From Planctomycetota bacterium (GTDB lineage: Bacteria > Planctomycetota > Planctomycetia > JALXBF01): a DNA stretch of 53,544 nt. The position numbers and the translations under genes are program-made. The stretch is taken from NCBI GenBank assembly GCA_026991575.1, contig JALXBF010000114.1:1-53544 (forward strand), written 5' to 3'. The notes beneath the pieces were generated by a model, which was not told the DNA's origin, made no database searches, and was given only the letters and a program-made list of their open reading frames with translations. Shown piece after piece: positions 14,593 to 38,040 of the stretch (positions are counted from its first letter, which is position 1; every line of letters begins with the position of its first letter).

Positions 14593-17500
14593 ATGGCCAC
14601 GACCCACGACCTCTTACAGCCGCTACACACGTCTGTGCTCGAGCTGATCGAGCAGTTCCGGTCGCTCGTGGCCTGGCGGCATGCACGCGAACGAGAGCTC
14701 CAGCGGCAAGCGCGTGAGAGCCAGGAGGCGCTTGCCCGCGAGCAACGTCAACGGACACGGAACATCGTCCGGCGGGTGGACGCGGCCATCGAGCAGCTAC
14801 GGCAGCGCGATGCCGAGCTGCGCGGCAAGGTGGCCGAGATTGAACGCCGCTATCACGCCCAGTTCAAAGAGCTGAAGCAACTGCTCAAGGCGCGGTACCG
14901 GCAGTTCCACCGTGCCGTCGAGCAGGCTCGTAAGTCCTACCGGGACGCCGCCTGGGAATCGACCACGATCCATGAGGCGACCAAGACCGGTGTCCGGGCC
15001 GACCTGGAAACCTACGGTAGCCAGCTCGAGGTTCTCGGCCGGCGGGCCGCGGCTGTCCGAGAGCACGCCATGCGGATTGCCGCGGACTGGTCAATCCCTC
15101 AGCTGGACGTCCCCGAGCACGGCCGCCCGCCTGCCGAAACAGCAGCCAAGCTCCGATCTGACCTGACCGCCGCCCAGGACCAGGCTGACGACCTCTTGCA
15201 GCGGGCCGGTTCGTGGCCTCGGCTGGGCACGGCCGGATGGCTGGCACTGGCCATCGGAGCATCGGTGGCCGTGGCAGTGACGGTAGCCGTCGGGGTCACG
15301 GTCCGTTGGCTGCCCGCTTTGCTGGGCTTTCCCCTGGTGCTGGTGCTGCTTGCAGGGTTGGCGTACCTAGTTCACTGGGTCGTACAGCGCAACCGCGTGC
15401 GGCGACTGCTCTGCGAAGCGGTGTCACTGGCCGCCTGGGTCGAGCGGAACCTGATTGCCTGTCGCCGCATGATGGAGTTGGAGGGACAGGAGCGGATCCG
15501 GCGCGATGCAGAACGACACCGCAGCGAGCTGAACCGGCTCCGGGCCCGTTTGCGTGAGGAGCTGCTGGCTGCACGCGACCGTTACCGCGCCGAGGGCCGC
15601 CGCATCCGCGACGGTGAGCTGCTGGACTTGCGCCGCATCCAGAGCGAGTTGCTCACGGCCCGCCAGGAAGTCGATGGCTTCCTGGAGCGGCGGCTGGCCG
15701 AGCTGCGTCGGGGGCGGTCGCGCGAACTGTTGGCCGCAAAGGCGTGGTACCGTGACCAGCAACAACGACGCCGCCTGCTGGCCGAGCAAGCACGCCGTGA
15801 TCTGGCAGCAGAGTTCGCCAGAAAGCTGCACTCGCTGCGCAACGACACCGCGAAGCTCTGGCAGGCCTGCCGGGAACGCTTCCCCGTGTGGCATCGGTTC
15901 GTGCCCGAACGGTGGCAACCAGCCGAAGAACCGGCTGAGTACGTGTTCATCGGACAAATGGACTACGACCTCATCGAACACGCCGGGGCACGGGAGGGGT
16001 GGTTTGCCGACCGGGCTGATGCCTGCTTTTGCCTGCCAGCGCTCGTGCCACTGCCGCCATCGGGTGCTCTTATGCTAGACGTCCCGCCGCAGCGCCACCG
16101 TGACGCAGTTGGCTGGCAGCGAAACTTCATTGCGCGTTACCTGCAAGCAGTGCCACCTGGCCGCTTCCGCCTCCTGCTGCTGGACCCGGCGTTCCTGGGG
16201 GATCCGTTCTCCGGACTCATGCACCTGGCCGACTATGATCGCAGCGTCGTGTCGGGCCGCATCTGGAGTGAGCCGCGGGCGATCGATCAGCAGCTGGAAA
16301 GGCTCCAGGAACAGCTCGAGACCGTAATCCAGGCATTCTTACGCGATCGGTTCGCCACGTTACGCGAGTACAACCGATCGGCAGGGGAGGTTGCCGAACC
16401 GTACCGCCTGGTGGTGCTGACCGACTGCCCCGACTCGCTGCCGGAGTCCGCTCTGCACCGGCTCCACGCGATTGCCACGAACGCGACCCGCTGTGGTGTC
16501 ACGCTGCTGCTATTGCGGCCGGCGCGCTCCTCGCCGCTTGGGGCGGTTGAGGAAGAGGTGCTCGGGCCCGTTTCGCTCAGCGGTCAACTTGACTACCCGC
16601 AACTCCGCTTCGACGAAGTCGCTGGTGAGCGGCTGCCACCTGTGGAACTGGAAGCGGCACCGCCCAGCGAGCTCTTCACCCGGCTGGTGCACCGGGTTGG
16701 GGCACTGGTTGCCGAAGCGGGCCGCGTGGAGGTGCCCTTTGAGCGGATCCTCCCTGAGCCTGCACAGTGGTGGCAAGCTTCCACACGCGACGGCCTTGCC
16801 GTGCCCCTGGGGGTAATCGGGGCGCAAGCCGTGCAGGAACTGCAACTCGGCCGCGGTACCGCACAGCACGTGCTCGTGGCGGGGCGCACCGGCTCGGGCA
16901 AGTCTAACCTGCTTCACGTGCTGATCACCTCGGCAGCACTCAAGTACAGCCCGAACGAATTGCTGTTGTATCTGGTCGACTTCAAGAAGGGGGTCGAGTT
17001 CAAAGCGTACGCCAGCTACGAGTTGCCACATGCTCGGGTGGTAGCGATCGAGAGCGAACGTGAGTTCGGCCTGAGTGTCCTGCAACAACTCGATCACGAG
17101 CTGCAGCGACGCGGTGAGCTGTTCCGCGCGGCCGGAGTCCAGGACCTGCCCTCCTACCGCAGGGCACGCCCCAATGAACCGATGCCCCGGATCCTGCTGA
17201 TCGTGGACGAGTTCCAGGAGTTCTTTGTCGAGGACGATCAGATTGCCCAGCAGGCTTCGCTGCTGCTGGACCGGCTCGTGCGCCAGGGACGTGCCTTCGG
17301 CATGCATGTGCTACTCGGGTCGCAGACGCTTGGCGGGGCATACTCGCTTGCCCGAAGCACGGTCAGCCAAATGGGTGTACGCATCGCGCTGCAATGCAGT
17401 GAAGGCGATGCGCATTTGATCCTGAGCGAGGACAATCCGGCGGCGCGCCTGCTGAGCCGCCCGGGCGAAGCGATCTACAACGACGCCAACGGACTGGTGG

Positions 17501-18498
17501 AAGGCAACCGGCGGTTTCAGATCGCGTGGCTGCCGGCGCCGGTGCGCGACCGCTACCTGGCCGAAGTGCGCCGCTTGGCGGAACAGGCACAGTGGCATCG
17601 CGACGTCCCGATGCTGGTCTTTGAGGGCAATGTGCCGGCCGATCTTGCTCGCAATGATGAGCTTTCCGATCTGCTTGCTCGACCCTGGCAGCCGGACGCT
17701 CCGCAACAGGCGCTGCAACTCTGGTTGGGTGAGTCGGTCGCGCTGCCGAGGCCGGTTGCGGCAATGCTTGAACCGCGCGCCGGTAGCAATCTGCTGCTGG
17801 TCGGCCAGGATGCGGTCGGTGCAGCCGGTATCCTGGTCTCCTCATTGCTGAGCGCAGCGGCACAGCGACCGCCTGCCGGCAGCGATGGGCTACGCATCTA
17901 CATCGCCGACGAAGCGGCTCCTGAACGTTGCCACCGCCAGCTCTGGCGCCAGCTCGCAGAGTTCCTGCCCCACCAGGTCGAGCTTCTTGGCTCCGGGCGG
18001 GCCGTCGAGGAGCTCGTGCTTCGGCTCGCCGACGAGCTGGACCGTCACGAGAGCGACGGTGCGGTAACGCTCGTCGTTCTCTATGACATCGCGCGGATCC
18101 GCGCCCTGCGGGCCGCCGATGAGCTGTTCAGCTTCACGGACACCGGGGGGCAGGACGGCGCAGACGTGTCGCGTCGCTTCCGCAAACTCTACGAGGAGGG
18201 GCCGGAGCGAAACGTGCACCTGCTGGTATGGTGTGACACGGCGGCTGGTGCCCAGCGGGTCTTCGGCCGCAGCGGGGTGCGAGAGTTTGGCCTGCGGGTC
18301 GTCTTCCAGATGAGCGCCAACGACTCCACCACCTTGATCGACTCCCCGGCCGCAGCCAGGCTGGGGGTGTACCGGGCGCTGTTCTACGACGAGGACCGAG
18401 GGACGCTGGAGAAGTTCCGACCGTATGCCGTGCCGGAACTGGTACAGCTCAAAGAGCTCGCACGGCGCATTGCCGCCCGCTTTGCGGCGGAGAGGTGA
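14593..18498 (+). CDS. Large FtsK/SpoIIIE-domain membrane ATPase (EccC/EssC-like)
   Basis: 1301 aa: coiled coil, 2 TM helices, coiled coil, then FtsK-like domains. Canonical HVLVAGRTGSGKS Walker A, LVDFKKG, ILLIVDEFQE Walker B, RQGRAFGMH arginine finger. Confidence 0.9.
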   Translation: MATTHDLLQPLHTSVLELIEQFRSLVAWRHARERELQRQARESQEALAREQRQRTRNIVRRVDAAIEQLRQRDAELRGKVAEIERRYHAQFKELKQLLKARYRQFHRAVEQARKSYRDAAWESTTIHEATKTGVRADLETYGSQLEVLGRRAAAVREHAMRIAADWSIPQLDVPEHGRPPAETAAKLRSDLTAAQDQADDLLQRAGSWPRLGTAGWLALAIGASVAVAVTVAVGVTVRWLPALLGFPLVLVLLAGLAYLVHWVVQRNRVRRLLCEAVSLAAWVERNLIACRRMMELEGQERIRRDAERHRSELNRLRARLREELLAARDRYRAEGRRIRDGELLDLRRIQSELLTARQEVDGFLERRLAELRRGRSRELLAAKAWYRDQQQRRRLLAEQARRDLAAEFARKLHSLRNDTAKLWQACRERFPVWHRFVPERWQPAEEPAEYVFIGQMDYDLIEHAGAREGWFADRADACFCLPALVPLPPSGALMLDVPPQRHRDAVGWQRNFIARYLQAVPPGRFRLLLLDPAFLGDPFSGLMHLADYDRSVVSGRIWSEPRAIDQQLERLQEQLETVIQAFLRDRFATLREYNRSAGEVAEPYRLVVLTDCPDSLPESALHRLHAIATNATRCGVTLLLLRPARSSPLGAVEEEVLGPVSLSGQLDYPQLRFDEVAGERLPPVELEAAPPSELFTRLVHRVGALVAEAGRVEVPFERILPEPAQWWQASTRDGLAVPLGVIGAQAVQELQLGRGTAQHVLVAGRTGSGKSNLLHVLITSAALKYSPNELLLYLVDFKKGVEFKAYASYELPHARVVAIESEREFGLSVLQQLDHELQRRGELFRAAGVQDLPSYRRARPNEPMPRILLIVDEFQEFFVEDDQIAQQASLLLDRLVRQGRAFGMHVLLGSQTLGGAYSLARSTVSQMGVRIALQCSEGDAHLILSEDNPAARLLSRPGEAIYNDANGLVEGNRRFQIAWLPAPVRDRYLAEVRRLAEQAQWHRDVPMLVFEGNVPADLARNDELSDLLARPWQPDAPQQALQLWLGESVALPRPVAAMLEPRAGSNLLLVGQDAVGAAGILVSSLLSAAAQRPPAGSDGLRIYIADEAAPERCHRQLWRQLAEFLPHQVELLGSGRAVEELVLRLADELDRHESDGAVTLVVLYDIARIRALRAADELFSFTDTGGQDGADVSRRFRKLYEEGPERNVHLLVWCDTAAGAQRVFGRSGVREFGLRVVFQMSANDSTTLIDSPAAARLGVYRALFYDEDRGTLEKFRPYAVPELVQLKELARRIAARFAAER

Positions 18499-24940: not shown

Positions 24941-25495
24941 TCATCGGCCCGGAATGGGGTTTTCCGGAGCAGTAGTGTTGTCGTTGCGGAGCAAGTCCAG
25001 GTAGGCCACGCCAATCCGCGGCTCCTGGGCCAGTCCGAGCTGCTGCAGCAGGAGTTCGGTTTCCGCACGCGCCTGGGCTACCGCGTCCGGTCCGTCGCCG
25101 ATGGCCGTTTCCAGTTCGATGAACTGCCCCAGACCGTCGACGCGATCTAAGTGGATTCGCGTCCGACGGATAAGGTAGACAGTGCGTGTCTTGCGCACGA
25201 TGCCTTCCAGCGGCAGGCAGCAGAGCAGAACGCGCTTGAGCTGTTCGGGGGTTGCGGTCCGATAACTGTGATACTCAGAGATACGGGCCGCGGGCGTGTC
25301 AGGTCGATGGTACGCGATTAGCTCGGCGGTTGCGGGTGGTTGGATACGGAGTTTCAGGCGGCCCGCCGGTACGGCGAAGAAGTAATCCTCCTGGTGCAGA
25401 TCGGCGGCACGGTGCGCCAGTGAGTCGAGCGTCTGTTGCACGGTCTGGAACTGCTCGTGGCTGAGGCGGATTTTGACTTCGTTGTTGCGTGGCAC
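24941..25495 (-). CDS. cyaB: Class IV adenylate cyclase / CYTH domain protein
   Basis: NEVK (ExExK variant), QEDYFF, RLKLR, RKTR, HLDRVDGLGQFIELE, AYLDLL. Confidence 0.85.
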   Translation of the reverse strand: MPRNNEVKIRLSHEQFQTVQQTLDSLAHRAADLHQEDYFFAVPAGRLKLRIQPPATAELIAYHRPDTPAARISEYHSYRTATPEQLKRVLLCCLPLEGIVRKTRTVYLIRRTRIHLDRVDGLGQFIELETAIGDGPDAVAQARAETELLLQQLGLAQEPRIGVAYLDLLRNDNTTAPENPIPGR

Positions 25496-25897: not shown

Positions 25898-25914
25898 TTG
25901 GCACAAAGCTTGCT
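25898..25914 (+). promoter_or_regulatory. Sigma54 (-24/-12) promoter of the nap-Rieske/cytb-hao operon
   Basis: TTGGCACAAAGCTTGCT matches TGGCAC-N5-TTGCW exactly, about 70 bp upstream of the napA ATG, within a long intergenic region. Confidence 0.8.
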
Positions 25915-25984
25915 GTCAGCCCATGTGAGCTTATGTCGGCGGGTTGGGTGTGAGCCTGGTGGGCTGTGCCCCAAGGGAGGCGCC

Positions 25985-28318
25985 ATGGCAGTAACGCGGC
26001 GAGAATTCCTCGGAAGCACGTTGGCTGCGACGGCGGCGGCGACGGCATCAACCAGTCTTCTGGTCAGTTGTGCCCAACAGCAAGAAGACCTCAAACGCAT
26101 CGACCTCTCCGGAGTGACGTGGAAGAAGGGGGTGTGCCGTTTCTGCGGTACTGGCTGCGGCGTGTTAGTCGGGGTCAAGGACAATCGCGTCGTGGCCGTG
26201 CAGGGCGATCCGGAGAATCCCGTCAACCGTGGCTTGCTATGTGTGAAAGGGTACCATGCGCCGCTGATCCTCTACGGCGCGGACCGGCTCACAAAGCCGT
26301 TGATCCGGCGCAACGGCAAGTTGGAACCGGCTAGCTGGGACGAGGCGCTTGACCTGATCGCAACCCGTTGGAAGGAGATCATCGAGAAGCACGGCCCGGA
26401 TGCCGTGGCGTTCTATGGGTCGGGCCAGTGGACGATTGAAGAGGGGTATGCGGCGCTGAAGCTGATGAAAGCGTGCATTGGCACGAACAACATCGAGGCC
26501 AATGCGCGGCTGTGTATGGCCAGTGCCGTGATGGGGTTCATGACCACGTTCGGCTCGGATGAGCCGATGGGCTGTTACGACGATTTCGAGAAGGCCGACG
26601 TGTTCGTCTGCTGGGGGAACAACTCCGCGGAAATGCACCCCGTGTTGTTTTCACGCATGACCATGGCGCGCGAAACGCGGCAGGGGGTTCGCCTGGTCGA
26701 CATCGCGCCGCGCCGAACACGCACCAGCGAAGTGGCCGACCTGTTCGTACAGATCCGGCCGCACACCGACTTGGCACTGGCTAACGGAATAGCCTATCTG
26801 CTGGTCCATCGCGGTTATATCGACCGCGAGTTTATCGAGAAGCACGTCGTGTTCAAGCGAGGCAAGACAGACATCGGGTACGGGACGGAGGACGGGTTCA
26901 AGTTCAAGGATCAGCCAGAGCGGATCACGTTCGACGAGTACGTGGCCTTCCTCGATGACTACAAGCCGCAGCGGGTTGCTGAGCTGTGTGGTGTGAAGGT
27001 GGCACGGATCGAGGAGCTCGCCCAGATTTATGGCGACCCGGCCACGAAGGTCGTTTCGTTGTGGTGCATGGGGGTGAACCAGCACGTCCGTGGCACCTGG
27101 ATGAACAACCTGATCTACAACCTGCACCTACTCACCGGCAAGATCTGTAAGCCGGGCAGCAATCCGCTGTCGCTCACCGGACAGCCCAGCGCGTGCGGCA
27201 CGGTGCGCGAGGTGGGAACGTTGTGCAATCGGCTTCCGGCTGACATGCTGGTTACCAATCCAGAGCATCGCAAGAAGGCGGCCGAAATCTGGGGCATTCC
27301 CGAGGAAAAGATCCCCGCTAAGGTCGGCTATCACACCGTGGAGATGTTCCGGGCGCTGGACCGGGGCGAGATCAAGTCGATCTGGATTCAGGTCACAAAT
27401 CCAGCTCAGACTCTGCCCAACGCGTCCCGGTACATCGAGGCAATGAAACGTCCGGACACGTTCATCATCGTTTCGGATGTCTATCCGACCGAGACGACCG
27501 AGGTGGCCGACGTGGTGTTGCCTTCTGCCTTGTGGGTGGAGAAGACGGGACTGTACGGGAACACGGAGCGGCGCACGCAGCACTGGGAAAAGATGGTTGA
27601 CCCGCCTGGAGAAGCGAAGCCGGACGTGTGGCAGATTGTCGAAGTGGCCCGTCGGATGGGCTACGGTCACATGTTTGACTTTGGTGGCAAACCGCTCGAG
27701 GAGGGGCTATTCGAAGAGTACCGCAAGTTCACACTGGGGACCGGCAAAGACCTGGCTCCTTATGAGGTCTACAAGCGCGTCCGCGGTCTGCGCTGGCCGG
27801 TGGTCAACGGCAAGGAGACGCCGTACCGCTACGTCGAGGGCTATGACCCGTACGTGCCGAAGGGTGCTGGGATCAGCTTTTACAAGAACAAGAAGGATGG
27901 CGGTCGTGCAGTGATCTGGGCGCGGCCGTACGAGCCGCCGGCCGAAGAGCCGGATGAAGAGTATCCGTTCTGGCTGACCACGGGCCGGGTGTTGGAGCAC
28001 TGGCACACCGGCACGATGACACGGCGCGTGCCTCAGCTCTACCGGGCTGTGCCGGAGGCGTATTGTGAGCTTCATCCGGACGATGCTCGGGAACTGCAGA
28101 TTGCCACCGGCGATCTCGTCAGGGTTGTGTCGCGGCGCGGGTCACTTCAGTTGCGCGCGAAGGTTGGCGGTCGAGGTACGCCGCAGCGCGGCATGGTGTT
28201 CATTCCGTTCTTTGATGAGGAGAAGTTAGTCAACCTGCTTACCCTTGACGCCTTCTGCCCGATTTCCAAGGAGCCGGACTACAAGAAGTGTGCGGTGCGG
28301 GTGGAGAAGGTCGGCTAG
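25985..28318 (+). CDS. napA: Periplasmic nitrate reductase catalytic subunit (Mo-bisPGD, 4Fe-4S)
   Basis: GGAGG RBS; Tat motif TRREFL; CRFCGTGC...C cluster; GSGQWT, NARLCMASA, DEPMGCYDD, GVNQH, SLTGQPSACGT, GRVLEHWHTGTMT, CPISKEPDYKKCAV. Confidence 0.95.
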   Translation: MAVTRREFLGSTLAATAAATASTSLLVSCAQQQEDLKRIDLSGVTWKKGVCRFCGTGCGVLVGVKDNRVVAVQGDPENPVNRGLLCVKGYHAPLILYGADRLTKPLIRRNGKLEPASWDEALDLIATRWKEIIEKHGPDAVAFYGSGQWTIEEGYAALKLMKACIGTNNIEANARLCMASAVMGFMTTFGSDEPMGCYDDFEKADVFVCWGNNSAEMHPVLFSRMTMARETRQGVRLVDIAPRRTRTSEVADLFVQIRPHTDLALANGIAYLLVHRGYIDREFIEKHVVFKRGKTDIGYGTEDGFKFKDQPERITFDEYVAFLDDYKPQRVAELCGVKVARIEELAQIYGDPATKVVSLWCMGVNQHVRGTWMNNLIYNLHLLTGKICKPGSNPLSLTGQPSACGTVREVGTLCNRLPADMLVTNPEHRKKAAEIWGIPEEKIPAKVGYHTVEMFRALDRGEIKSIWIQVTNPAQTLPNASRYIEAMKRPDTFIIVSDVYPTETTEVADVVLPSALWVEKTGLYGNTERRTQHWEKMVDPPGEAKPDVWQIVEVARRMGYGHMFDFGGKPLEEGLFEEYRKFTLGTGKDLAPYEVYKRVRGLRWPVVNGKETPYRYVEGYDPYVPKGAGISFYKNKKDGGRAVIWARPYEPPAEEPDEEYPFWLTTGRVLEHWHTGTMTRRVPQLYRAVPEAYCELHPDDARELQIATGDLVRVVSRRGSLQLRAKVGGRGTPQRGMVFIPFFDEEKLVNLLTLDAFCPISKEPDYKKCAVRVEKVG

Positions 28319-28374
28319 CGTCGTATCCCTGCCTGGGTCCGGTTCGTGTCGGGCTGTTGTGAGGAACGATACCG

Positions 28375-28974
28375 ATGAAACGGTCCTGGCTGGAGTGGCT
28401 GCACAAGCGAGATCCCAGAGCGACGCGGATGTTGGCTGTTGTGGCCGTGATCGCCGTGGCAGTTGCCATGGTGATGGTCGGCTGCGGTCAGTCGGGCCAG
28501 GAGGAGGTCACGGGGCGGTTTCGCGCTGACTTGCGGGCTTACTACGGTGCGCCCCCCGTGATTCCGCATCCGGTGGAGGCACTGGGACGCGGCAACTGTA
28601 GGGCTTGTCACGAGCAGGGGCTGATCTATCAGGGGCAGGTGGCGGTGGCCCGGCCGCATCCGTATGTGGGCGAGTGTCGGCAGTGTCATGTGGAGCAGTT
28701 GCCGGTGGAGCCCAAAGTGAAGAACAGCTTTGTTGGGTTGGCCGAGCCGGAGCGGCTGCCGCGGGCCTATCCGGGCGCGCCTCCGCTGATCCCGCACGAA
28801 ACACGCATGCGGGCCAACTGCACCGCGTGCCACGGCCCCCGGGGCCATCCGGAGCTGCGGACACCTCACCCGCGCCACTGGACCGAGTGCATGCAGTGCC
28901 ATGTACGGCCCGAGCCAGGGGTGGAACCGCCCGTGGTGAACAACTTCGCCACGTTGTGGGAGGCGACTCGATGA
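28375..28974 (+). CDS. napB: NapB-like tetraheme cytochrome c (two tandem NapB-like diheme repeats)
   Basis: Four CxxCH motifs (CRACH, CRQCH, CTACH, CMQCH) in two RAY.GAPP.IPH...CxxCH...PHP...CxQCHV repeats; N-terminal hydrophobic segment ending MVGC. Confidence 0.8.
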   Translation: MKRSWLEWLHKRDPRATRMLAVVAVIAVAVAMVMVGCGQSGQEEVTGRFRADLRAYYGAPPVIPHPVEALGRGNCRACHEQGLIYQGQVAVARPHPYVGECRQCHVEQLPVEPKVKNSFVGLAEPERLPRAYPGAPPLIPHETRMRANCTACHGPRGHPELRTPHPRHWTECMQCHVRPEPGVEPPVVNNFATLWEATR

Positions 28975-29453
28975 GTGACGAACCGATCAAAGAGCCGACA
29001 ACGGGTGATGAGCAGCCCAGTCGGCGAGGGTTTGTTACGACGGTGCTGATGCTGGCCAGCCTGGTCGCCAGCTACGGCCTTGGGCTGGTTTATTTCCTCC
29101 GCTTCCTCGTGCCGCCCATTCGCTGGCGCCGTCGGGAACTGTTCGTGACCACCGTCGACCGGGTGCCGTCGGATCGTGCTCTGGTCTGGGTCGGTCCGGA
29201 TGGGCAGGAGGCGCTCATCTACAACCTCAATGGCGAAATCGTTGCCTTCTCCAACGTCTGCCCGCACCTCGGTTGCCACGTGCACTACCGCCCCAGCGAA
29301 CAACGGTTCGTGTGTCCGTGCCATCAGGGGGTATTCGATCTGGAGGGCAACCCGATCGCCGGGCCGCCGGCCGAGGAGAACACCCCGCTGAAGCGATACA
29401 ACATCGTGGTGCGTGGCAACGCGGTGTACCTGGAAATCCTGGAGGAAGCCTAG
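28971..29453 (+). CDS. Rieske 2Fe-2S subunit of a Rieske/cytochrome b complex
   Basis: ATGA overlap with the upstream gene; Tat motif SRRGF plus TM anchor; CPHLGC and CPCH boxes; GPP. Confidence 0.92.
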   Translation: MSDEPIKEPTTGDEQPSRRGFVTTVLMLASLVASYGLGLVYFLRFLVPPIRWRRRELFVTTVDRVPSDRALVWVGPDGQEALIYNLNGEIVAFSNVCPHLGCHVHYRPSEQRFVCPCHQGVFDLEGNPIAGPPAEENTPLKRYNIVVRGNAVYLEILEEA

Positions 29454-29454
29454 C

Positions 29455-30495
29455 ATGGCCGGTTGGTGGGCACGACATGTACCGATCAACCAGGAGACCG
29501 TGCGGCACTTTACCAGCGAGCCGGTGCCGTATCACCTGCGCCGCTGGTGGTGGTGCCTCGGGGGGACTCCCGCCTACCTGTTCGTGGTCATGGCCACGAC
29601 CGGCATCCTGATGACCTTCTACTACGTGCCCCGGCCTCCGGAGGCGTACTACAGCGTCCAGCGGATCACCGAGGAGGTGCCGTACGGCTGGTACATCCGC
29701 AGCGTCCACCGCTGGGCTGCCAACCTGATGATCATCACGGTTATCCTGCACATGATGCGCGTCTACTTCACCGGCGCGTATCGCTGCCCGCGGGAAATCA
29801 ACTGGATGATCGGCGTCGGCCTCTTAGTGACCACGCTGCTATTCGGCTTCACAGGCTATTCGCTCATTTACGAGCAGCTTTCCTACTGGGGGGTAACCGT
29901 AGCAAGCAATCTGATGGAGGCCACCCCGCTGATCGGCCCATGGCTGGCAAGACTGATCCGTGGCGGCGCCGAGGTGGGCGAGACGACGTGGGTCCGTCTG
30001 TTCGTGTTCCACATCGGAGTGCTGCCCACGATCATGACGATCCTGCTCATCTGTCACTTCACGTTGATCCGGCTCCATGGCGTGACACCGTACCGGTTTC
30101 CCGACGAGCCCGAGGGTAAGACGTATCCGTTTTTCCCGGACCACGTGCTGACGGAGCTGGCCATTGGCGTGTTCCTCATGTTTCTGCTCACGTGCCTGGC
30201 CTGCATTTTCCCGGCCGAGCTTGGCCCGATCGCCAATCCGCTCGTGACTCCGGAGCACATCAAGCCGGAGTGGTACTTCTATTTCACGTTCCGGCTGTTG
30301 AAGCTCATGGGACTGACCTGGGCGGTTCTCACGTTGGGCTTCATGCTGTTCATCACACTGCTCTGGCCGTTCATCGACGCTGCGATCCGAAAGTACTGGC
30401 CCGAAAGCGAGCTGAGCGTGTACATCGGCATCGCTGCGGTCGTGCTGCTGTGCGTCATGACCGTGTGGGAGGCGATGGAAGGGACCGTGTTCTGA
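29455..30495 (+). CDS. Cytochrome b of b6 type (cyt b6 and subunit IV fused)
   Basis: CLGG, RSVHRWAA..LHM, FTGYSL, SYWG, FHIGVLP..CHF, and the PEWY Qo-site motif. Confidence 0.92.
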   Translation: MAGWWARHVPINQETVRHFTSEPVPYHLRRWWWCLGGTPAYLFVVMATTGILMTFYYVPRPPEAYYSVQRITEEVPYGWYIRSVHRWAANLMIITVILHMMRVYFTGAYRCPREINWMIGVGLLVTTLLFGFTGYSLIYEQLSYWGVTVASNLMEATPLIGPWLARLIRGGAEVGETTWVRLFVFHIGVLPTIMTILLICHFTLIRLHGVTPYRFPDEPEGKTYPFFPDHVLTELAIGVFLMFLLTCLACIFPAELGPIANPLVTPEHIKPEWYFYFTFRLLKLMGLTWAVLTLGFMLFITLLWPFIDAAIRKYWPESELSVYIGIAAVVLLCVMTVWEAMEGTVF

Positions 30496-30565
30496 GGACG
30501 CCGCGGTCTGTGGTGGATGCCGCTCCGAGAAAACCGTCACCCAGCGGGCTGAGTGGAGGGTCCGA

Positions 30566-31963
30566 ATGAGCCTGCGTGTGAAGCAACTGATCGTCGCCGT
30601 GCTGAGCCTCTTCTTCCTGGCCTCGCTGCTGATTGTAGCGTGGATCGAAGGTGGGAAACAGCGAGCAGGAGGCAAGCCGCGCATCGTGGTAACGGGGGTT
30701 AACGAGCAGTGCGTCAGTTGTCACGAGGACAAGACGCCTGTGATCGTGGCCCAGTGGAAAGACAGCGTGCATGCCCAGAAGGCAATAGGCTGCTATGAAT
30801 GTCACCAGGCTGAGGAGGGCGAACCCGACGCCTTCCGGCACGAAGGCCACATCATCGCGACGATCGTGTCTCCGAAAGACTGCGCCCGGTGCCATGAGAA
30901 GGAGGTGGCCGAGTTCACGGCCAGCCACCACGCACGGGGAGCCCAGTTCGTCGGGTCGTTGGACAACATCTTGGGCGAGATCGTCGAGGGGCCACTTGCT
31001 GCGCAGAACGGCTGCTGGCAGTGCCATGGCTCGCCAGTTCGTTTCCTACGCGACGATGCAGGCAACATCCTGAAGTATGAAGACGGTCGTCTGAAGTTCG
31101 ACCCTGCAACCTGGCCCAACACGGGCATCGGCCGGATCAACCCGGACGGGTCCAACGGCTCGTGCACCGCTTGCCACTCACGCCACGTGTTCTCCAAGGC
31201 GATGGCGCGTCAGCCGGAGGTGTGCGGCAAGTGCCATATGGGGCCGGATCACCCGCAAATCGAAATCTACTACGAATCCAAGCACGGTATCGCGTTCAAG
31301 ACCCGCATCGACGAGATGAACCTCGATTCGGACAGCTGGGTGCTGGGCAAGGACTACACGGCAGCGCCGACCTGTGCTACCTGCCACATGAGTGCGACAC
31401 GAAACCAGCCGGTCACTCACGACGTCGGCGCCCGAATCAGCTGGACGCTGCGACCGGTGGTGTCCAAGAAGCTGGAGAACTGGGAACAGAAACGGGAGGC
31501 TATGAAGGACGTCTGCAACCACTGCCACTCGCCCAGCTTTGTCAATGCGTTCTATGACCAGTTCGACGCAAGCATCGAGCTGTACAACAAGAAATTCGCC
31601 ATCCCGGCGCAGAAGATCATGGACGCGCTCCGCAAGAAGGGCAAGATCACGCCGACACCATTTGATGACGAGATCGAGTGGACGTTCTTCCTGCTCTGGC
31701 ACCACGAAGGCCGTCGGGCTCGTATGGGCGTCTCGATGCAGGGCCCGGACTATACCCAGTGGCACGGCTTCTTCGAGCTGGCCCACCGCTTCTACTTCGA
31801 GTTGATCCCGCAGGCCAAGGAACTGGCCGAGGGGGACGAGGAGTTGATGCAGCTGATCGCGGACATCGAGAACGCCCCAGAGCACCGGTGGAAGAAGGGC
31901 GGTCTGGACAAGAAGACGATCCAGCAGATCCAGAAGTTCTACCAGGAGCGCTACGGCAAGTAG
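30566..31963 (+). CDS. hao: Octaheme cytochrome c of the hydroxylamine oxidoreductase (HAO) family
   Basis: Eight CxxCH motifs (CVSCH, CYECH, CARCH, CWQCH, CTACH, CGKCH, CATCH, CNHCH); HSRH, CHMGPDHPQIEIY.ESKHG, APTCATCHM, WHHEGRRAR, GPDYTQWHG. Confidence 0.9.
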   Translation: MSLRVKQLIVAVLSLFFLASLLIVAWIEGGKQRAGGKPRIVVTGVNEQCVSCHEDKTPVIVAQWKDSVHAQKAIGCYECHQAEEGEPDAFRHEGHIIATIVSPKDCARCHEKEVAEFTASHHARGAQFVGSLDNILGEIVEGPLAAQNGCWQCHGSPVRFLRDDAGNILKYEDGRLKFDPATWPNTGIGRINPDGSNGSCTACHSRHVFSKAMARQPEVCGKCHMGPDHPQIEIYYESKHGIAFKTRIDEMNLDSDSWVLGKDYTAAPTCATCHMSATRNQPVTHDVGARISWTLRPVVSKKLENWEQKREAMKDVCNHCHSPSFVNAFYDQFDASIELYNKKFAIPAQKIMDALRKKGKITPTPFDDEIEWTFFLLWHHEGRRARMGVSMQGPDYTQWHGFFELAHRFYFELIPQAKELAEGDEELMQLIADIENAPEHRWKKGGLDKKTIQQIQKFYQERYGK

Positions 31964-31993
31964 CTGCTGGCGCACGGAACCACACCCGACCCC

Positions 31994-32030
31994 ACGCCCT
32001 GCTGTGGCCGCGCAGTGGGGCGTTTTCTTG
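31994..32030 (+). terminator. Intrinsic terminator closing the nap-hao operon
   Basis: 13-bp stem including G-U pairs (ACGCCCTGCTGTG/CGCAGTGGGGCGT), 4-nt loop, then TTTCTTG. Confidence 0.65.
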
Positions 32031-32095: not shown

Positions 32096-33256
32096 ATGAG
32101 CCAGAGAGAATTGCCGAGGGACGAGGCGCGCGAGGAACTGGTCGACGAGGCAGAACTTGCCCAATTGATGGAAGCCGGTCCGGCAGCGCCTGTTGAGAAG
32201 CTGCGCGACGCTCTCGGGCAGGCCCCTGCCGGCCGCCGCTACGACGGAGCCCTGAAGTTCGAATTCACCGTCAAGCTCCGTTCCCAGGGGAAGCGGCTCG
32301 ACCAGTACCTCGCCGAACGTCTCGGCCAGTACAGCCGCTCGCTGATTCAGAAGGTGATCAAGGCCGGCGCGGTGGAAGTCAACGGCCGAGCCGTGCGCCC
32401 CAGCTACGCCATCAAGAAAGGCGACCACATCAGGCTGTGGTTGCCGGAGATTATCGAGCAGTTGCCCGTGCCGGAGAACATCCCGCTGGACATCCTCTAT
32501 GAGGACGAGCTCTTCGTCGTGGTCAACAAGCCGCCCGGCATGGTCGTGCATCCCGCGAAGGGACACTGGCGCGGCACGCTCGTGAACGCACTCCGGTACC
32601 ACTTCGAGAATCTCAGCGGCGTCTCCGGTCAGCACCGACCCGGCATCATCCACCGACTCGACCGGGATACCAGCGGCGTGATCGTCGTCGCCAAGGACGA
32701 CCTAGCACATGTGGACCTGGCGCTACAGTTCGAGCACCGCAAGGTGTACAAGGAGTACCACGTGCTGGTCTGCGGTGAGCCGGACCGCGACAGCGACTAT
32801 ATTGAGCAGCCGCTGGGCCCGCATCCCACGCACCGTGAAAAGATGGCCATCCGTCGCGTCGAGGACGGCGGCAAGCCGGCCAGGACCTTCTATGAGGTGA
32901 TCGAACGCTTCGATGGCTTTGCGTACGTGAAAGCCGTGCCGCACACCGGGCGAACCCACCAGATTCGCGTTCACCTGGCTCACATCGGCTGCCCCGTTCT
33001 TGCGGACTACGCCTACGGGGGCCGTCGCCAGCTGCGTCTCAGTGAGCTGGAGGGGCGCGAGTGCGACCTGGCGGAGGATGAGATCTTGATTGAGCGTCAG
33101 GCGCTGCACGCCTACATGCTACGCTTGCGCCACCCACGCACCCGCGCAATGATGGAATTCGTGGCGCCGCTTCCTGAGGATTTCCGCCGCACCCTTGAGG
33201 CACTGCGCCGCTACCGGCCTAGCACACATCGTGGCCGCCGTCGCCCGCGCACGTAA
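32096..33256 (+). CDS. rluD: RluA-family 23S rRNA pseudouridine synthase with S4 domain
   Basis: RLDQYL S4 domain, VNKPPGMVVHP, HRLDRDTSG catalytic Asp, TGRTHQIRVH, QALHA. Confidence 0.92.
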   Translation: MSQRELPRDEAREELVDEAELAQLMEAGPAAPVEKLRDALGQAPAGRRYDGALKFEFTVKLRSQGKRLDQYLAERLGQYSRSLIQKVIKAGAVEVNGRAVRPSYAIKKGDHIRLWLPEIIEQLPVPENIPLDILYEDELFVVVNKPPGMVVHPAKGHWRGTLVNALRYHFENLSGVSGQHRPGIIHRLDRDTSGVIVVAKDDLAHVDLALQFEHRKVYKEYHVLVCGEPDRDSDYIEQPLGPHPTHREKMAIRRVEDGGKPARTFYEVIERFDGFAYVKAVPHTGRTHQIRVHLAHIGCPVLADYAYGGRRQLRLSELEGRECDLAEDEILIERQALHAYMLRLRHPRTRAMMEFVAPLPEDFRRTLEALRRYRPSTHRGRRRPRT

Positions 33257-35260: not shown

Positions 35261-36093
35261 CGGTGGCGGCTCCGCGTGGCAATCGTGGAAATCTCAAACA
35301 GCACGAGGGTGTTTGGCAATCGGCGGTGCGGCGCGCAGGCGTTGCTGCCCGTCACCTTGTGGCGGTCGCGCGAAACTCGGACCCACTCTCAGCATGCTCC
35401 GGTTCAACACGGCGCCACAGCACCCTGTGCCGCATCATTGTAGCGCACGCGTTCAGTCGCATCGGCATGAGTGTCCACCCCACGGTCCAGAGCGGTTGGA
35501 CGAAAAACGAAGAGCACGACGCTCGCGGCCGTCCGTCACCGTGGCGGGCAAGCAAAGCAAGTCGGTGGCCGGCGGCCGGCTTGCGGAGGCCGACGGATGA
35601 GGCGGGGTGCAAACGACGGGGGAGGCGCGGAGAAGCGGAATTGGCTCACGGCTTGCGAACGTGTTGCCCCAGTTGGCCACGACAGGGCCTGGCCCTGTCT
35701 TACGGAAGCTGGGCAGGGAGAATTCAGCCGTTCCTCGCGGATCGCCCTCAGGCACGGGCTGCCCACGCCGGCTAGCAGCATGGCGTTCCGGGACCGTGTT
35801 CGCAGAGGCTTGATTGCAGTCGTCGTGGGACCGAACCGCTGTTGTCGCGATCGCTGGTCCGTGGTATGCACGAGCTGAGTCGGGGCGCGGGCCACGGGCA
35901 ACAGGTTCAGCACGCTGTAGGATCGCGGCGATGGTGCCGGTGACGGCCGCGGTTGCCCAAGTGCGATGCGCCTGGCCAGCGCGATAGTGCCCCATCGAGC
36001 AACATCCGTGGAATCGCGCGCGGCAGCACAACTGCGGCCTGCGACGGCTGGCGACTTCAGGCGGCGTGGCGGTCGGACGGAAAAGCCCAAGCA

Positions 36094-38040
36094 ATGCCCC
36101 TTGAAACCGCTCGATACATCTGGCCTTACGCGATGCTGGCCGCAATCGCCGCGGCCCTGCTCCTTCCCTCTCTGCATCAACCGCTCCTGGAAAACTACGT
36201 CGACCGACAGTGCCACACAGCGATGGTTGCCCGCAACCTGTTGAGGGGCGGCAGCCTGCTCTACCCGACGATCGACGTAGGCCCTTTCCCCGCGTACTAC
36301 ATGCTCGAGTTGCCGCTCTATCCCTGGCTCGCAGGCTGCCTGCATCGCCTGACACCGCTACCGCTGGACGCTGCAGGCCGGCTGGTGTCCTGCGTGGCCA
36401 CCATCGCCGCCACAGTTCTGCTGTTCGACCTGCTCCGCCGGAGCCACAGCGTCTACGCGGCTCTTTCGGCCTGCATCCTGGTGGTTACGACCCCTGTTGT
36501 GCTCCGCTATGGCCGTGCGTTCCAGCCGGACGCCCTGCTCCTGTTTTGCCTGGTACTCTCGGTGTGGGCGGCACACACGCGTGGGCCTATCCTGGGCTGG
36601 GCCTCTGCGGCCCTGGCCATCCTGCTCAAGGGCACCGCGGCGTGGATCGTGCTGGTAGTCGGCATGTGCCGGCGGGCGAAGGGGGATCGGTGGCCGCGGA
36701 TCGTTGCGGCGGGCGTGGTTGCCTTCCTGCCGGCAGCCGCGTGGTACCTGCACGCTGCGGCGGTTTCTCGGGCCACAGCGGCAGGGGTGTCAGCGGATTT
36801 CTGGGCGCTTCACAAGTGGCTGCCGCTGCATGGACTCGGTGTCGGGTCCGTGCTCGGCGAGCTTCTTTATCGACTCGGCTGGCGGAGCTTAGGGCCGGCG
36901 CTGTCTGTTGCGGCGATAGGAGGGGTCGTTCTCGGCTTGCACCGGCGGGTGCTGCCGACGTGGGCATCGTACTGGGCAGCCGGCTTGGTGACGTTTGTCC
37001 CCGTTCTGCTTCGGAAGGCGGACCATGAGCACTACTACCTGGTGCTCCTGCCAGCGGGGGCTGCCGCAGCGGCCGTCCTAGTTGACCGGCTGCGCAACCG
37101 GGAGGGGAGCTTGGGGAAACTGGTCTGGCCGGTGGCGGCCGGGCTATGCAGCGTGGCAGTTGTGGTTGCGGGCCGGGTGGCGTGGTCAACCCGTCAGGTG
37201 CCGAACGAATGGCGGGACGTGTTGGCGGCGGCAGCCGAACTGCGGCGGCTGACCCGGGCAGAAGAGCTCGTCGTCGGCCATTCCTCGGTGCTGTTCTATG
37301 CGGATCGGCGCGGTTACGCCGTCGCGCACCGGCCCGCGGACATCCGCCAGTGGCTGCTGAAATGGGGGCAGGAGGGCAGGCGTCTGGTACAACTTGCGGA
37401 GCAGCGAGCTGGTAGGCCCGGAGGGCACGCGGCATCGCTCGTGGCGCCCGACGTAGCCCGCCGCACCGCACGGGTCTCAAGTTCGGCGAGGACCGTTGGA
37501 TGGGGGAGCATGTCAGCGCCACCGCTAGGCGCGGCGGGCCGAACCGGGCTGAGCCCGTACGTGCTGTTGGAGCTTTATGCTCGGCATGGCGCGGTTGTGC
37601 TCGTGGAGCTGGACCGCAGCGTGGCTCTGGTGCCGGGTGGCCAGGCGTATCTTGACAGCCTGCATCGCCGGTACGCGGTGGTGAAACGGAAGCCGGGTGC
37701 GTACGTGGTCGTGCGGTTGCGCCGGGTGTCGCACCTAGCGGCGCGCGCGCCACGGGGCGCAACAGGATCAGCGCCCGACGGATTGGCGTCAGGACGTCAA
37801 CTCGATGTCATGCATGATGTTACTGATTCCAGAGGCGTCACGCACGCCGGCACGGACTTTGCCATGATGGCCCGGTACCTCCGCCGGCGCGGCGTCACCG
37901 CGACCGGCCCCTGGAATGTGGCCGCGAGAGCTGCCGTCGACGCGGACTGCTCCGACTGCGCTCGGCGCTGGACCTGCCAAGGAGGTAGCTCACGAGCAGG
38001 CTGTTATGGCCGGGGCCGGCCCGGTGGCCCGGCCGACTGA
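36094..38040 (+). CDS. GT-C fold membrane glycosyltransferase (ArnT/PMT-like)
   Basis: RQCHTAMVARN, LELPLY, GRAFQPD, LLKG and HEHYY motifs with many TM segments; the C-terminal tail is low-complexity and uncertain. Confidence 0.7.
   Translation: MPLETARYIWPYAMLAAIAAALLLPSLHQPLLENYVDRQCHTAMVARNLLRGGSLLYPTIDVGPFPAYYMLELPLYPWLAGCLHRLTPLPLDAAGRLVSCVATIAATVLLFDLLRRSHSVYAALSACILVVTTPVVLRYGRAFQPDALLLFCLVLSVWAAHTRGPILGWASAALAILLKGTAAWIVLVVGMCRRAKGDRWPRIVAAGVVAFLPAAAWYLHAAAVSRATAAGVSADFWALHKWLPLHGLGVGSVLGELLYRLGWRSLGPALSVAAIGGVVLGLHRRVLPTWASYWAAGLVTFVPVLLRKADHEHYYLVLLPAGAAAAAVLVDRLRNREGSLGKLVWPVAAGLCSVAVVVAGRVAWSTRQVPNEWRDVLAAAAELRRLTRAEELVVGHSSVLFYADRRGYAVAHRPADIRQWLLKWGQEGRRLVQLAEQRAGRPGGHAASLVAPDVARRTARVSSSARTVGWGSMSAPPLGAAGRTGLSPYVLLELYARHGAVVLVELDRSVALVPGGQAYLDSLHRRYAVVKRKPGAYVVVRLRRVSHLAARAPRGATGSAPDGLASGRQLDVMHDVTDSRGVTHAGTDFAMMARYLRRRGVTATGPWNVAARAAVDADCSDCARRWTCQGGSSRAGCYGRGRPGGPAD

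Follow-up and report, generated by a model that had tools for sequence, protein, structure and literature searches.

The window analysed here, a contig of 53,544 nucleotides (JALXBF010000114.1, C114 in our numbering) from the Planctomycetota assembly GCA_026991575.1, contains a cluster of five genes that probably corresponds to one sigma-54-dependent operon for the quinol-driven reduction of nitrate and nitrite in the periplasm. These genes encode the periplasmic nitrate reductase NapA, a cytochrome c with four hemes that consists of two NapB-like halves (called double NapB below), a Rieske protein, a cytochrome b and an octaheme cytochrome c of the HAO family. The last three genes form a conserved unit (the trio), which is joined repeatedly to the gene pair encoding NapA and double NapB. 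The host genome (4.96 Mb in 191 contigs) is 97.8% complete, and proteins reported below as not found in it are those for which this assembly contains no match over the family cut-off.

In the reading that we favour, the Rieske protein and cytochrome b would form a quinol oxidase of the complex III type with an intact quinol-oxidation site, in which a membrane-anchored octaheme enzyme would stand in place of cytochrome c1 or f and pass electrons from the Rieske cluster to its own catalytic heme. The substrate of the octaheme enzyme would most likely be nitrite (and hydroxylamine), reduced to ammonium, and the lipid-anchored double NapB would carry electrons from the same Rieske/cytochrome b complex to NapA. 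Because quinol would be oxidized by this complex rather than by NapC or NrfH, the pathway could conserve energy. We infer the physical complex, the direction of electron flow, the product, the translocation of protons and a respiratory as against an assimilatory role.

Seven features, all on the + strand, follow each other between positions 25899 and 32023: a sigma-54 site, napA, the gene encoding the four-heme tandem NapB, the Rieske gene, the cytochrome b gene, the octaheme gene and a terminator. A previous reading of the DNA, made from its letters without database searches (the sequence-only reading), had listed the same features, and all of them are present. It had also described gaps of at most 70 bp or overlaps between the genes, in agreement with the junctions: 56 bases separate napA from the double NapB gene, which overlaps the Rieske gene by 4 bases (ATGA), while 1 base lies before the cytochrome b gene and 70 bases lie before the octaheme gene. 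The operon holds five protein genes only, which are presumably co-transcribed. Position 25898, from which the sequence-only reading had started, corresponds to the TTG of the longest frame and is not a likely start codon; the likely start of napA is the ATG at 25985. Downstream, a hairpin with 13 pairs, 8 of them G-C, and a T-rich tail behind it resembles a terminator and is located at 31994-32023 (+ strand), 30 bases after the octaheme stop. Terminator-like sites are no commoner in the scan than in shuffled sequences (5 versus 5.1), so that it is the position of this hairpin that counts.

The putative sigma-54 (-24/-12) promoter site at 25899-25914 (+ strand, TGGCAC-N5-TTGCT), about 72 bases 5' of the napA ATG, is the sole zero-mismatch match to TGGCACNNNNNTTGCW across the 53.5-kb window. 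Since matches with up to two mismatches are near their expected number (37 versus 30.2), only this perfect site stands out. A perfect site is also present in L080, the closest relative for which upstream sequence is available, 48 bases upstream of where the napA match begins; the NapA protein of this locus is 85% identical to that of the window, and the DNA around its sigma-54 site is barely alignable with the window. Such a site is absent before the first gene in the other 35 of the 36 related loci outside the window, the background of the scan being 18 sites per 460 kb. The conservation of a perfect site in L080 despite diverged flanks, together with its absence from the other 35 loci, makes the promoter look real and specific to this lineage. 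The host genome encodes RpoN, and the site presumably functions as a promoter. An activator would be expected to bind in the non-coding stretch of about 400 bases between a CYTH-domain gene and the sigma-54 site.

Sigma-54 with NtrC-type activators classically governs nitrogen assimilation genes, and the same machinery might have an assimilatory role, being induced under nitrogen limitation and converting external nitrate to periplasmic ammonium for uptake. The perfect site kept in the window and in L080 though the flanks have diverged is consistent with such a role, as is the fact that NapA is the sole nitrate reductase found in the host genome, so that any assimilation of nitrate must use it. 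The octaheme and Rieske/cytochrome b genes of Nitrospira are moreover described as expressed on nitrite as sole nitrogen source (PMC6606698). We nevertheless consider assimilation a possible but doubtful function of the operon: no activator gene or binding site was identified, no search aimed at a binding site having been made, and a sigma-54 site is present in just one of the 36 related loci outside the window. Activators of sigma-54 also sense nitric oxide (NO) and other signals. The regulators encoded beside relatives of the operon are of the Crp/Fnr type (L012, L026, L030 and L031) and of the Rrf2 type (L036 and L038), which are typical of anaerobic respiration of nitrogen oxides; a hemerythrin is also encoded in L026. 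In addition, two NirA-like proteins of the host could already reduce nitrite for assimilation, and the comparable cluster of Caldithrix abyssi is reported to serve respiratory growth (PMC5317091).

Conservation of the trio and its link to nap genes

The family of the octaheme protein is very large: 7998 of the 8000 candidates scored match it at E ≤ 0.001, with identities of 60% or more for the best 120. A Rieske gene and/or a cytochrome b gene is present directly upstream of the octaheme gene in 19 of the 32 loci of the genome_contigs set, distributed among Planctomycetota, Acidobacteriota, Myxococcota, Spirochaetota, Fibrobacterota and unclassified genomes. L011, L014 and L016 have the five genes in the complete order of the window, from napA and double NapB through Rieske and cytochrome b to octaheme. 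The sequence-only reading had made its proposal depend on a gene order conserved across genomes, and this conservation is borne out for the trio in the 19 loci from several phyla, with nap genes joined to it in two gene orders.

The scan of metagenomes with double NapB as query led to 80 loci, in 67 of which napA is directly upstream of the double NapB gene; the remaining 13 have at most 335 bases of upstream sequence. Downstream of double NapB, ten of the 80 loci encode a Rieske protein, then cytochrome b and the octaheme protein as far as the contig extends. Five others present the reverse order, with the trio (or cytochrome b and octaheme genes where the contig is cut) upstream of napA.

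In a sample of Planctomycetota, an octaheme homolog (E ≤ 1e-100) is present in 33 of 301 genomes, the window's own included; the 16 genomes in that sample that come from the same class as the window have none at this threshold. The octaheme protein of one Planctomycetota genome (L009) is 85% identical to that of the window. Cytochrome b is encoded beside the octaheme gene in 12 of the 28 Planctomycetota loci that were fetched; in seven of these 12, napA is directly downstream of the octaheme gene, unlike the order in the window. Three more Planctomycetota loci contain an octaheme gene without the membrane anchor, paired with napA.

The double NapB gene and napA are also found next to other modules. 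A membrane module consisting of tetraheme, 4Fe-4S and NrfD-type proteins, as detected with Pfam, adjoins the pair in L130 (7428-10261), L141 (2779-5789) and L115 (1576-4283), whereas in L095 (2590-4056) the NrfD-type part alone is shown; L135 and L144 present an open reading frame pattern that matches this module by size and heme count only. The module looks like an alternative quinol dehydrogenase for double NapB. In L114, the pair is near NrfHA. To judge from these neighbourhoods, double NapB is a general adaptor for NapA.

Neighbouring genes in related loci were listed from GC3-filtered open reading frames on the same strand. Several other genes accompany the trio in particular loci. In L037 (35-13050) and L039 (1906-13029), both from Planctomycetota, the trio is located amid genes for a cytochrome c554-like tetraheme protein and an 11-heme NapC-like protein, without nap genes; the neighbours in these two loci also include a 1220-residue eight-heme protein with a PKD-like domain. 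In L027 (4401-6330), from Spirochaetia, the trio is preceded by a five-heme protein of 477 residues, part of which is NapC/NirT-like, and by a monoheme cytochrome c. Finally, an outer-membrane channel of the Alginate_exp family is encoded directly upstream of the octaheme gene or operon in seven loci (L022 6508-7800, L026 6731-7894, L030 6612-7922, L031 6033-7391, L019 69-1199, L011 1555-3198 and L012 3861-5171), often preceded by a Crp/Fnr regulator (L012, L026, L030 and L031). This channel may serve specifically to admit nitrate or nitrite across the outer membrane.

Components of the operon and the predicted complex

All five proteins of the operon fall clearly into known families. The first gene, napA (25985-28318, + strand), encodes a 777-residue catalytic subunit of periplasmic nitrate reductase that exceeds the cut-offs of two NCBIfam equivalogs (NF010055, 1053.2 bits versus 904; TIGR01706, 1028.7 bits versus 930.55). 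The Fe4S4 N-terminal domain, the Molybdopterin domain and the Molydop_binding domain (PF04879, PF00384 and PF01568) are all detected over the Pfam cut-offs. The N-terminus, as read from the sequence, carries T-R-R-E-F-L and then, at residues 8-30, a hydrophobic segment, corresponding to a twin-arginine leader.

The next gene (28375-28974, + strand) encodes the 199-residue double NapB with four CxxCH motifs. Its two NapB-like halves are 49% identical to each other (E 5e-16), and each of them starts with the proline-rich motif found in NapB ahead of its first heme. The protein scores 45.1 bits with the NapB family of Pfam (cut-off 25.1) but fails the NapB equivalog of NCBIfam (17 bits versus 230); it also differs from canonical NapB, with its two CxxCH motifs and about 130-150 residues. 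The best matches among solved structures are weak and correspond to NapB chains (1OGY_B, E 0.011). By these features, it is a duplicated variant of NapB and not a canonical one. The hydrophobic leader ends in a cysteine, and the protein is probably anchored by a lipid. No named description of a tandem or tetraheme NapB was found in the open literature searched. Compared with canonical NapAB (e.g., that of Rhodobacter sphaeroides, 1OGY), the window presents a NapA within the same equivalog families, followed by a partner cytochrome with proline-rich motifs, but this partner is duplicated in tandem, has four hemes and is probably tethered to the membrane, and no NapD, NapC, NapG or NapH was found with the operon.

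The Rieske [2Fe-2S] protein (28971-29453, + strand; 160 residues; Pfam Rieske, 48.2 bits) has an N-terminal twin-arginine/transmembrane anchor, and the ATG of its gene overlaps the TGA stop of the double NapB gene as ATGA. All 16 aligned relatives have both cluster boxes, C-x-H-x-G-C and C-P-C-H, unchanged. The cytochrome b (29455-30495, + strand; 346 residues) resembles cytochrome b6 in its N-terminal part, to which a C-terminal part like subunit IV is fused (Pfam Cytochrome_B, 180.6 bits; Cytochrom_B_C, 38.4 bits), with H85, H99, H186, H201 and the quinol-site motif P-E-W-Y invariant in 18 of 18 relatives. The invariance of the Rieske boxes, the heme histidines and the P-E-W-Y motif suggests that the quinol-oxidation site of this complex is likely to work. 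The host genome contains two further cytochrome b loci (on contigs C170 and C37), so that the Rieske/cytochrome b pair of the operon would be a dedicated extra complex. The operon contains no gene for a cytochrome c1, cytochrome f or diheme c subunit; the cytochrome b gene is followed by the octaheme gene.

The octaheme protein (30566-31963, + strand; 465 residues) has eight CxxCH motifs and an uncleaved N-terminal membrane anchor, belongs to the HAO/IhOCC family (PF13447, 103.3 bits versus a cut-off of 21.9) and is encoded in the usual gene position of cytochrome c1. The closest solved structure is IhOCC of the archaeon Ignicoccus hospitalis (4QO5), with E 1.2e-46 for the single protein and 2.1e-59 for a 22-sequence profile. 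IhOCC likewise has eight hemes, but carries a tryptophan at the position aligned with Y396 of the window protein; it is described as an octaheme nitrite reductase without P460 heme (PMC9250108). Weaker matches correspond to Nitrosomonas HAO (4FAS, 1.7e-23), 4N4J (3.1e-22), Kuenenia HAOr (6H5L, 1.7e-20; 2.5e-26 with the profile) and 6HIF (2.4e-19). The Kuenenia proteins HOX, HDH and HAOr are thus all much further from the window protein than IhOCC.

This position in the family bears on the possibility that the octaheme enzyme makes or removes NO or hydroxylamine instead of producing ammonium, either by reducing nitrite to NO with one electron, as does the HAOr of anammox bacteria, or by detoxifying hydroxylamine or NO that arises beside Nap. 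A Kuenenia HAO that lacks the cross-linking tyrosine is reported to reduce nitrite to NO (PMC8042395, PMC12485887), Rrf2-type and hemerythrin genes, which are often linked to NO, adjoin relatives of the operon, and the host has no NirK and no clear NirS to explain the handling of NO. The much greater proximity of the octaheme protein to IhOCC than to HAOr 6H5L (1.2e-46 versus 1.7e-20) argues against this function, as do the HAOs of epsilonproteobacteria, which are reported, second-hand, to reduce nitrite and hydroxylamine (PMC8042395). We therefore consider it unlikely.

The N-terminal membrane helix of the octaheme protein is conserved and uncleaved only in the copies linked to Rieske/cytochrome b genes, whereas unlinked copies have ordinary signal peptides. 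A tree of the octaheme proteins was built with 86 rows, corresponding to the window and 85 of 86 loci (32 from genome_contigs, 14 from the phylum of genome G301, 28 from Planctomycetota, 9 from metagenomes and 3 from anammox genomes; the partial locus L040 was dropped). On this tree, at least five changes of the Rieske/cytochrome b linkage are forced by well-supported branches and seven are counted by parsimony. These repeated changes suggest that anchored and soluble forms interconvert within one enzyme clade.

A structure was predicted for the three chains of the trio together, using custom alignments, which make the calibration only rough, and leaving out the hemes. The prediction scored 0.70 versus 0.49 for the best control, a mark attained by 116 of 157 solved complexes and by 2 of the 215 pairs that were mismatched; at least 90% of contacts are common to the runs, and the partner has a pLDDT (predicted local distance difference test) of at least 86. 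The predicted contacts involve residues 3-28 of the octaheme protein with residues 228-250 of cytochrome b and the membrane helix of the Rieske protein, as well as octaheme residues 72-78 and 108-112 with the Rieske head. The predicted complex, for which the sequence-only reading had pointed to multimer modelling, passed the controls, and the model supports binding of the octaheme protein to the Rieske/cytochrome b complex.

A bolder version of our reading would make the octaheme protein a structural subunit replacing c1 in a proton-motive quinol:nitrite oxidoreductase, with double NapB docking NapA, in other words a single sigma-54-controlled membrane 'nitrate-to-ammonium respirasome', whose catalytic heme might be tuned by a conserved tyrosine at the position cross-linked in oxidative HAOs, an intermediate state relative to the reductive and the oxidative enzymes of this family. 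We regard this version as speculative and rather improbable.

Other nitrogen enzymes of the host and alternative routes of electrons

The host genome contains few other candidates for the reduction of nitrate or nitrite. NrfA was not found (best match 19.6 bits versus a cut-off of 24.1), nor were NapH and NarG; NirK, NapD and Hcp gave no match, and for NirS only weak propeller matches were obtained. A second molybdoenzyme, encoded on C152, was considered as an assimilatory nitrate reductase and rejected, since it corresponds to the alpha subunit of a formate dehydrogenase (768 bits versus a cut-off of 666). The sequence-only reading, which envisaged ammonification independent of NrfA, had suggested looking in the host for nrfA, nirS or nirK, and napC or napGH; the results agree with it for NrfA, NirK and NapH, and for NirS apart from the weak matches, but one gene of the NapC/NrfH family is present.

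This gene is among several observations that weigh against an operon in which a single quinol-oxidizing complex feeds both reductases. It encodes a tetraheme protein of the NrfH/NapC family (PF03264, 91.9 bits) on contig C109, outside the operon, and is followed four bases on by the gene of an HAO-related cytochrome of 443 residues in which CxxCH occurs seven times (PF13447, 54.9 bits). This separate quinol-linked multiheme pair (C109:36312-38210, corresponding to L007 6313-8211) could reduce nitrite or feed Nap, and is the main alternative within the genome. The host also encodes the two NirA-like sirohaem proteins mentioned above, both scoring below the curated cut-offs. Moreover, napA is absent from 16 of the 19 genome loci in which the octaheme gene is linked to Rieske/cytochrome b genes, 11 of these 16 having at least 3 kb of upstream sequence, and many pairs of napA and double NapB adjoin other modules. 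The link with Nap is thus optional, given that most linked loci are without napA and that nap pairs occur with other modules. In the prediction of the complex, the control from which cytochrome b was missing (replaced) still scored 0.49. The last point concerns a tyrosine near the catalytic heme and is treated at the end of this section.

These data also bear on the possibility that the five genes are merely regulated together, the Rieske/cytochrome b complex serving the octaheme enzyme alone and NapA and double NapB being fed by another quinol dehydrogenase, such as the NrfH-type protein of C109. Such an arrangement would agree with the occurrence of the trio without nap genes in most loci, with the association of napA and double NapB elsewhere with the tetraheme/4Fe-4S/NrfD-type module or with NrfHA, and with the presence of a gene of the NrfH family in the host. 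However, the NrfH gene on C109 directly precedes its own multiheme partner, NapH was not found in the host genome, the link between nap genes and the trio recurs in two gene orders and in different lineages, and in the window the last four bases of the double NapB gene also belong to the Rieske gene. We judge separate electron supplies to the two reductases to be improbable, and retain the common supply by the Rieske/cytochrome b complex.

From its sequence, an HAO is usually argued to be reductive when it lacks the tyrosine cross-linked to the catalytic heme. To locate this position, a hydrazine dehydrogenase (HDH) from an anammox genome, which exceeds the cut-off of the HDH equivalog, was aligned to solved structures. 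The cross-linking tyrosine of Nitrosomonas HAO, taken to be residue 467, corresponds to a tyrosine in HDH, and at this HDH position HOX also has a tyrosine and HAOr a tryptophan. Alignment of the window family with 14 anammox sequences of HDH/HOX type by hhalign sets Y396 of the window protein exactly on the cross-link tyrosine. In a MAFFT alignment of 46 mixed sequences, the register is shifted by four residues relative to hhalign, placing H400 at the cross-link position. Position 396 is a tyrosine in 29 of 31 loci and a phenylalanine in two close relatives; the residue of IhOCC aligned to it by profile search is a tryptophan, and IhOCC-like paralogs of anammox bacteria carry histidine or tyrosine. 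A 66-residue piece around Y396 has no sequence match in the PDB even at E 10. The absence of a cross-linking tyrosine is therefore not clearly established by these alignments, even though a cross-link to the catalytic heme seems unlikely because of the phenylalanine variants and the closeness to IhOCC.

If Y396 did cross-link a P460-type heme, the octaheme enzyme could be oxidative, acting on hydroxylamine or a related compound, with the Rieske/cytochrome b complex and Nap as electron sink or in a redox loop. The exact superposition of Y396 on the cross-link tyrosine in the profile-profile alignment and its presence in 29 of 31 loci are the arguments for such an activity, to which we assign a very low probability. 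The phenylalanine of the two close relatives, the tryptophan of IhOCC, the histidine or tyrosine of the IhOCC-like paralogs and the different MAFFT register all argue against it. A feed of electrons from HAO to the Rieske centre would probably make little energetic sense, and we know of no precedent for it. No ammonia monooxygenase context was found in the 53.5-kb window, and the nearest solved structure, IhOCC, is described as being without P460 (PMC9250108). Reduction of nitrite to ammonium remains the activity that we favour for the octaheme enzyme.

Related systems and neighbouring genes

The window operon is a compact example of a widespread module, and the concept, already published for Caldithrix and Nitrospira, is not new. 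Its local particulars are the napA-first order, the tandem NapB, the apparently lineage-specific sigma-54 promoter and NapA as the sole nitrate reductase found. To our knowledge, the module has been noted in genome papers since 2015-2017, and no complex has been purified. The wiring put forward by the sequence-only reading, with the Rieske/cytochrome b complex feeding both Nap and HAO, is plausible and fits the conserved linkage, the anchor restricted to linked copies and the predicted complex, but had already been proposed elsewhere. If this wiring is true, the conversion of nitrate and nitrite to ammonium would be coupled to a Q-cycle and yield more energy per electron than the textbook routes through NapC and NrfH. 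Ammonification independent of NrfA would then extend to many uncultured Planctomycetota, Acidobacteriota and other bacteria, so that gene surveys based on nrfA alone would underestimate nitrogen retention.

Caldithrix abyssi is reported to grow by nitrate ammonification while lacking NapC and NrfA, and its Rieske/cytochrome b complex was proposed in 2017 to feed a tetraheme and/or an octaheme cytochrome, maybe generating a proton-motive force (PMC5317091). According to its published gene content, it combines in one cluster nap genes, Rieske/cytochrome b genes without c1 and an HAO-family octaheme gene (epsilonHao); the cluster is described as including napM (a tetraheme gene upstream of napA), napG, napH and other nap genes, with no napB (PMC5317091). 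By contrast, the window is without NapGH, and its tetraheme protein is derived from NapB and encoded after napA. The window too has nap, Rieske, cytochrome b and HAO-family genes in one cluster, in a genome in which NrfA was not found, save that a gene of the NapC/NrfH family is present elsewhere.

In Nitrospira moscoviensis and Nitrospira japonica, an octaheme nitrite reductase is encoded directly after Rieske/cytochrome b genes (petBC), and the papers propose a coupling of nitrite reduction to the quinone pool (PMC6606698, PMC12342949, PMC5767232). The octaheme and Rieske/cytochrome b genes are described as co-expressed with nitrite as sole nitrogen source, and in N. japonica not with added ammonium (PMC6606698). 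These systems differ from the window operon by their assimilatory role in an aerobic nitrite oxidizer and, in the genes described, by the absence of a nap link (PMC6606698, PMC12342949, PMC5767232). In the phylum of G301 (Candidatus Magnetominusculus, Nitrospirota), 29 of 201 genomes contain an octaheme homolog at E ≤ 1e-60, and Rieske/cytochrome b genes are beside it in one (L170) of the 14 best loci.

The parallel with anammox planctomycetes drawn by the sequence-only reading holds for the design, but the octaheme subunit of these bacteria comes from a different branch of the family. The R/b-3 complex of Kuenenia stuttgartiensis (kuste4569-4574) is a Rieske/cytochrome b complex that includes the HAO-family octaheme protein Kuste4574, thought to reduce nitrite (PMC12485887). 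Kuste4574 is reported to be closely homologous to HAOr (Kustc0458) (PMC12485887), whereas the window protein is far nearer to IhOCC; in addition, the window operon is without genes beyond the five named. A closer anammox relative is a 554-residue paralog found in L078 (9329-10993, genome G132) and L194, which is 47% identical to the window octaheme protein, has a 50-residue insertion after window residue 304 and does not adjoin Rieske/cytochrome b genes. Orthology of the window protein with Kuste4574 was considered and rejected, Kuste4574 being placed in the HAOr branch (PMC12485887) and the closest anammox paralog having no Rieske/cytochrome b neighbour.

Periplasmic nitrate reduction in Campylobacter jejuni is likewise fed through a Rieske/cytochrome b-type complex and not by NapC: according to genetic evidence, Nap requires the menaquinol-cytochrome c reductase QcrABC, which makes nitrate reduction electrogenic and conserves energy (PMC6195509). 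QcrABC is a general complex with its own cytochrome c subunit, reported to be encoded apart from nap (PMC6195509), whereas the window has a dedicated third cytochrome b locus within the nap operon, and an enzyme would replace the cytochrome c subunit. Deferribacteres are described as linking nap with hao without a Rieske complex (PMC6896113).

The genes flanking the operon are unrelated to it. Upstream, the CYTH-domain gene (24941-25495, - strand) is divergent from the operon, from whose sigma-54 site it is separated by the non-coding bases mentioned above; downstream, the next gene (32096-33256) encodes a pseudouridine synthase. The G+C content of the window ranges from 0.61 to 0.68. The one sample that strongly matches this stretch is a hydrothermal vent metagenome, its probable source, and no RNA sample is listed for it. 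The window also encodes a protein with a DUF1570 domain, which is typical of Planctomycetota. A 1301-residue protein (14593-18498) contains an FtsK/SpoIIIE ATPase domain in its middle, the remainder having no Pfam match at E ≤ 1e-5. Three paralogous membrane proteins of the PMT_2 family (dolichyl-phosphate-mannose transferase-like) are encoded within this single 53-kb window (591-2375, 35953-38040 and 52261-53544), together with a DacZ-type diadenylate cyclase (50502-51548) composed of a DacZ_P sensor domain and a DAC domain.

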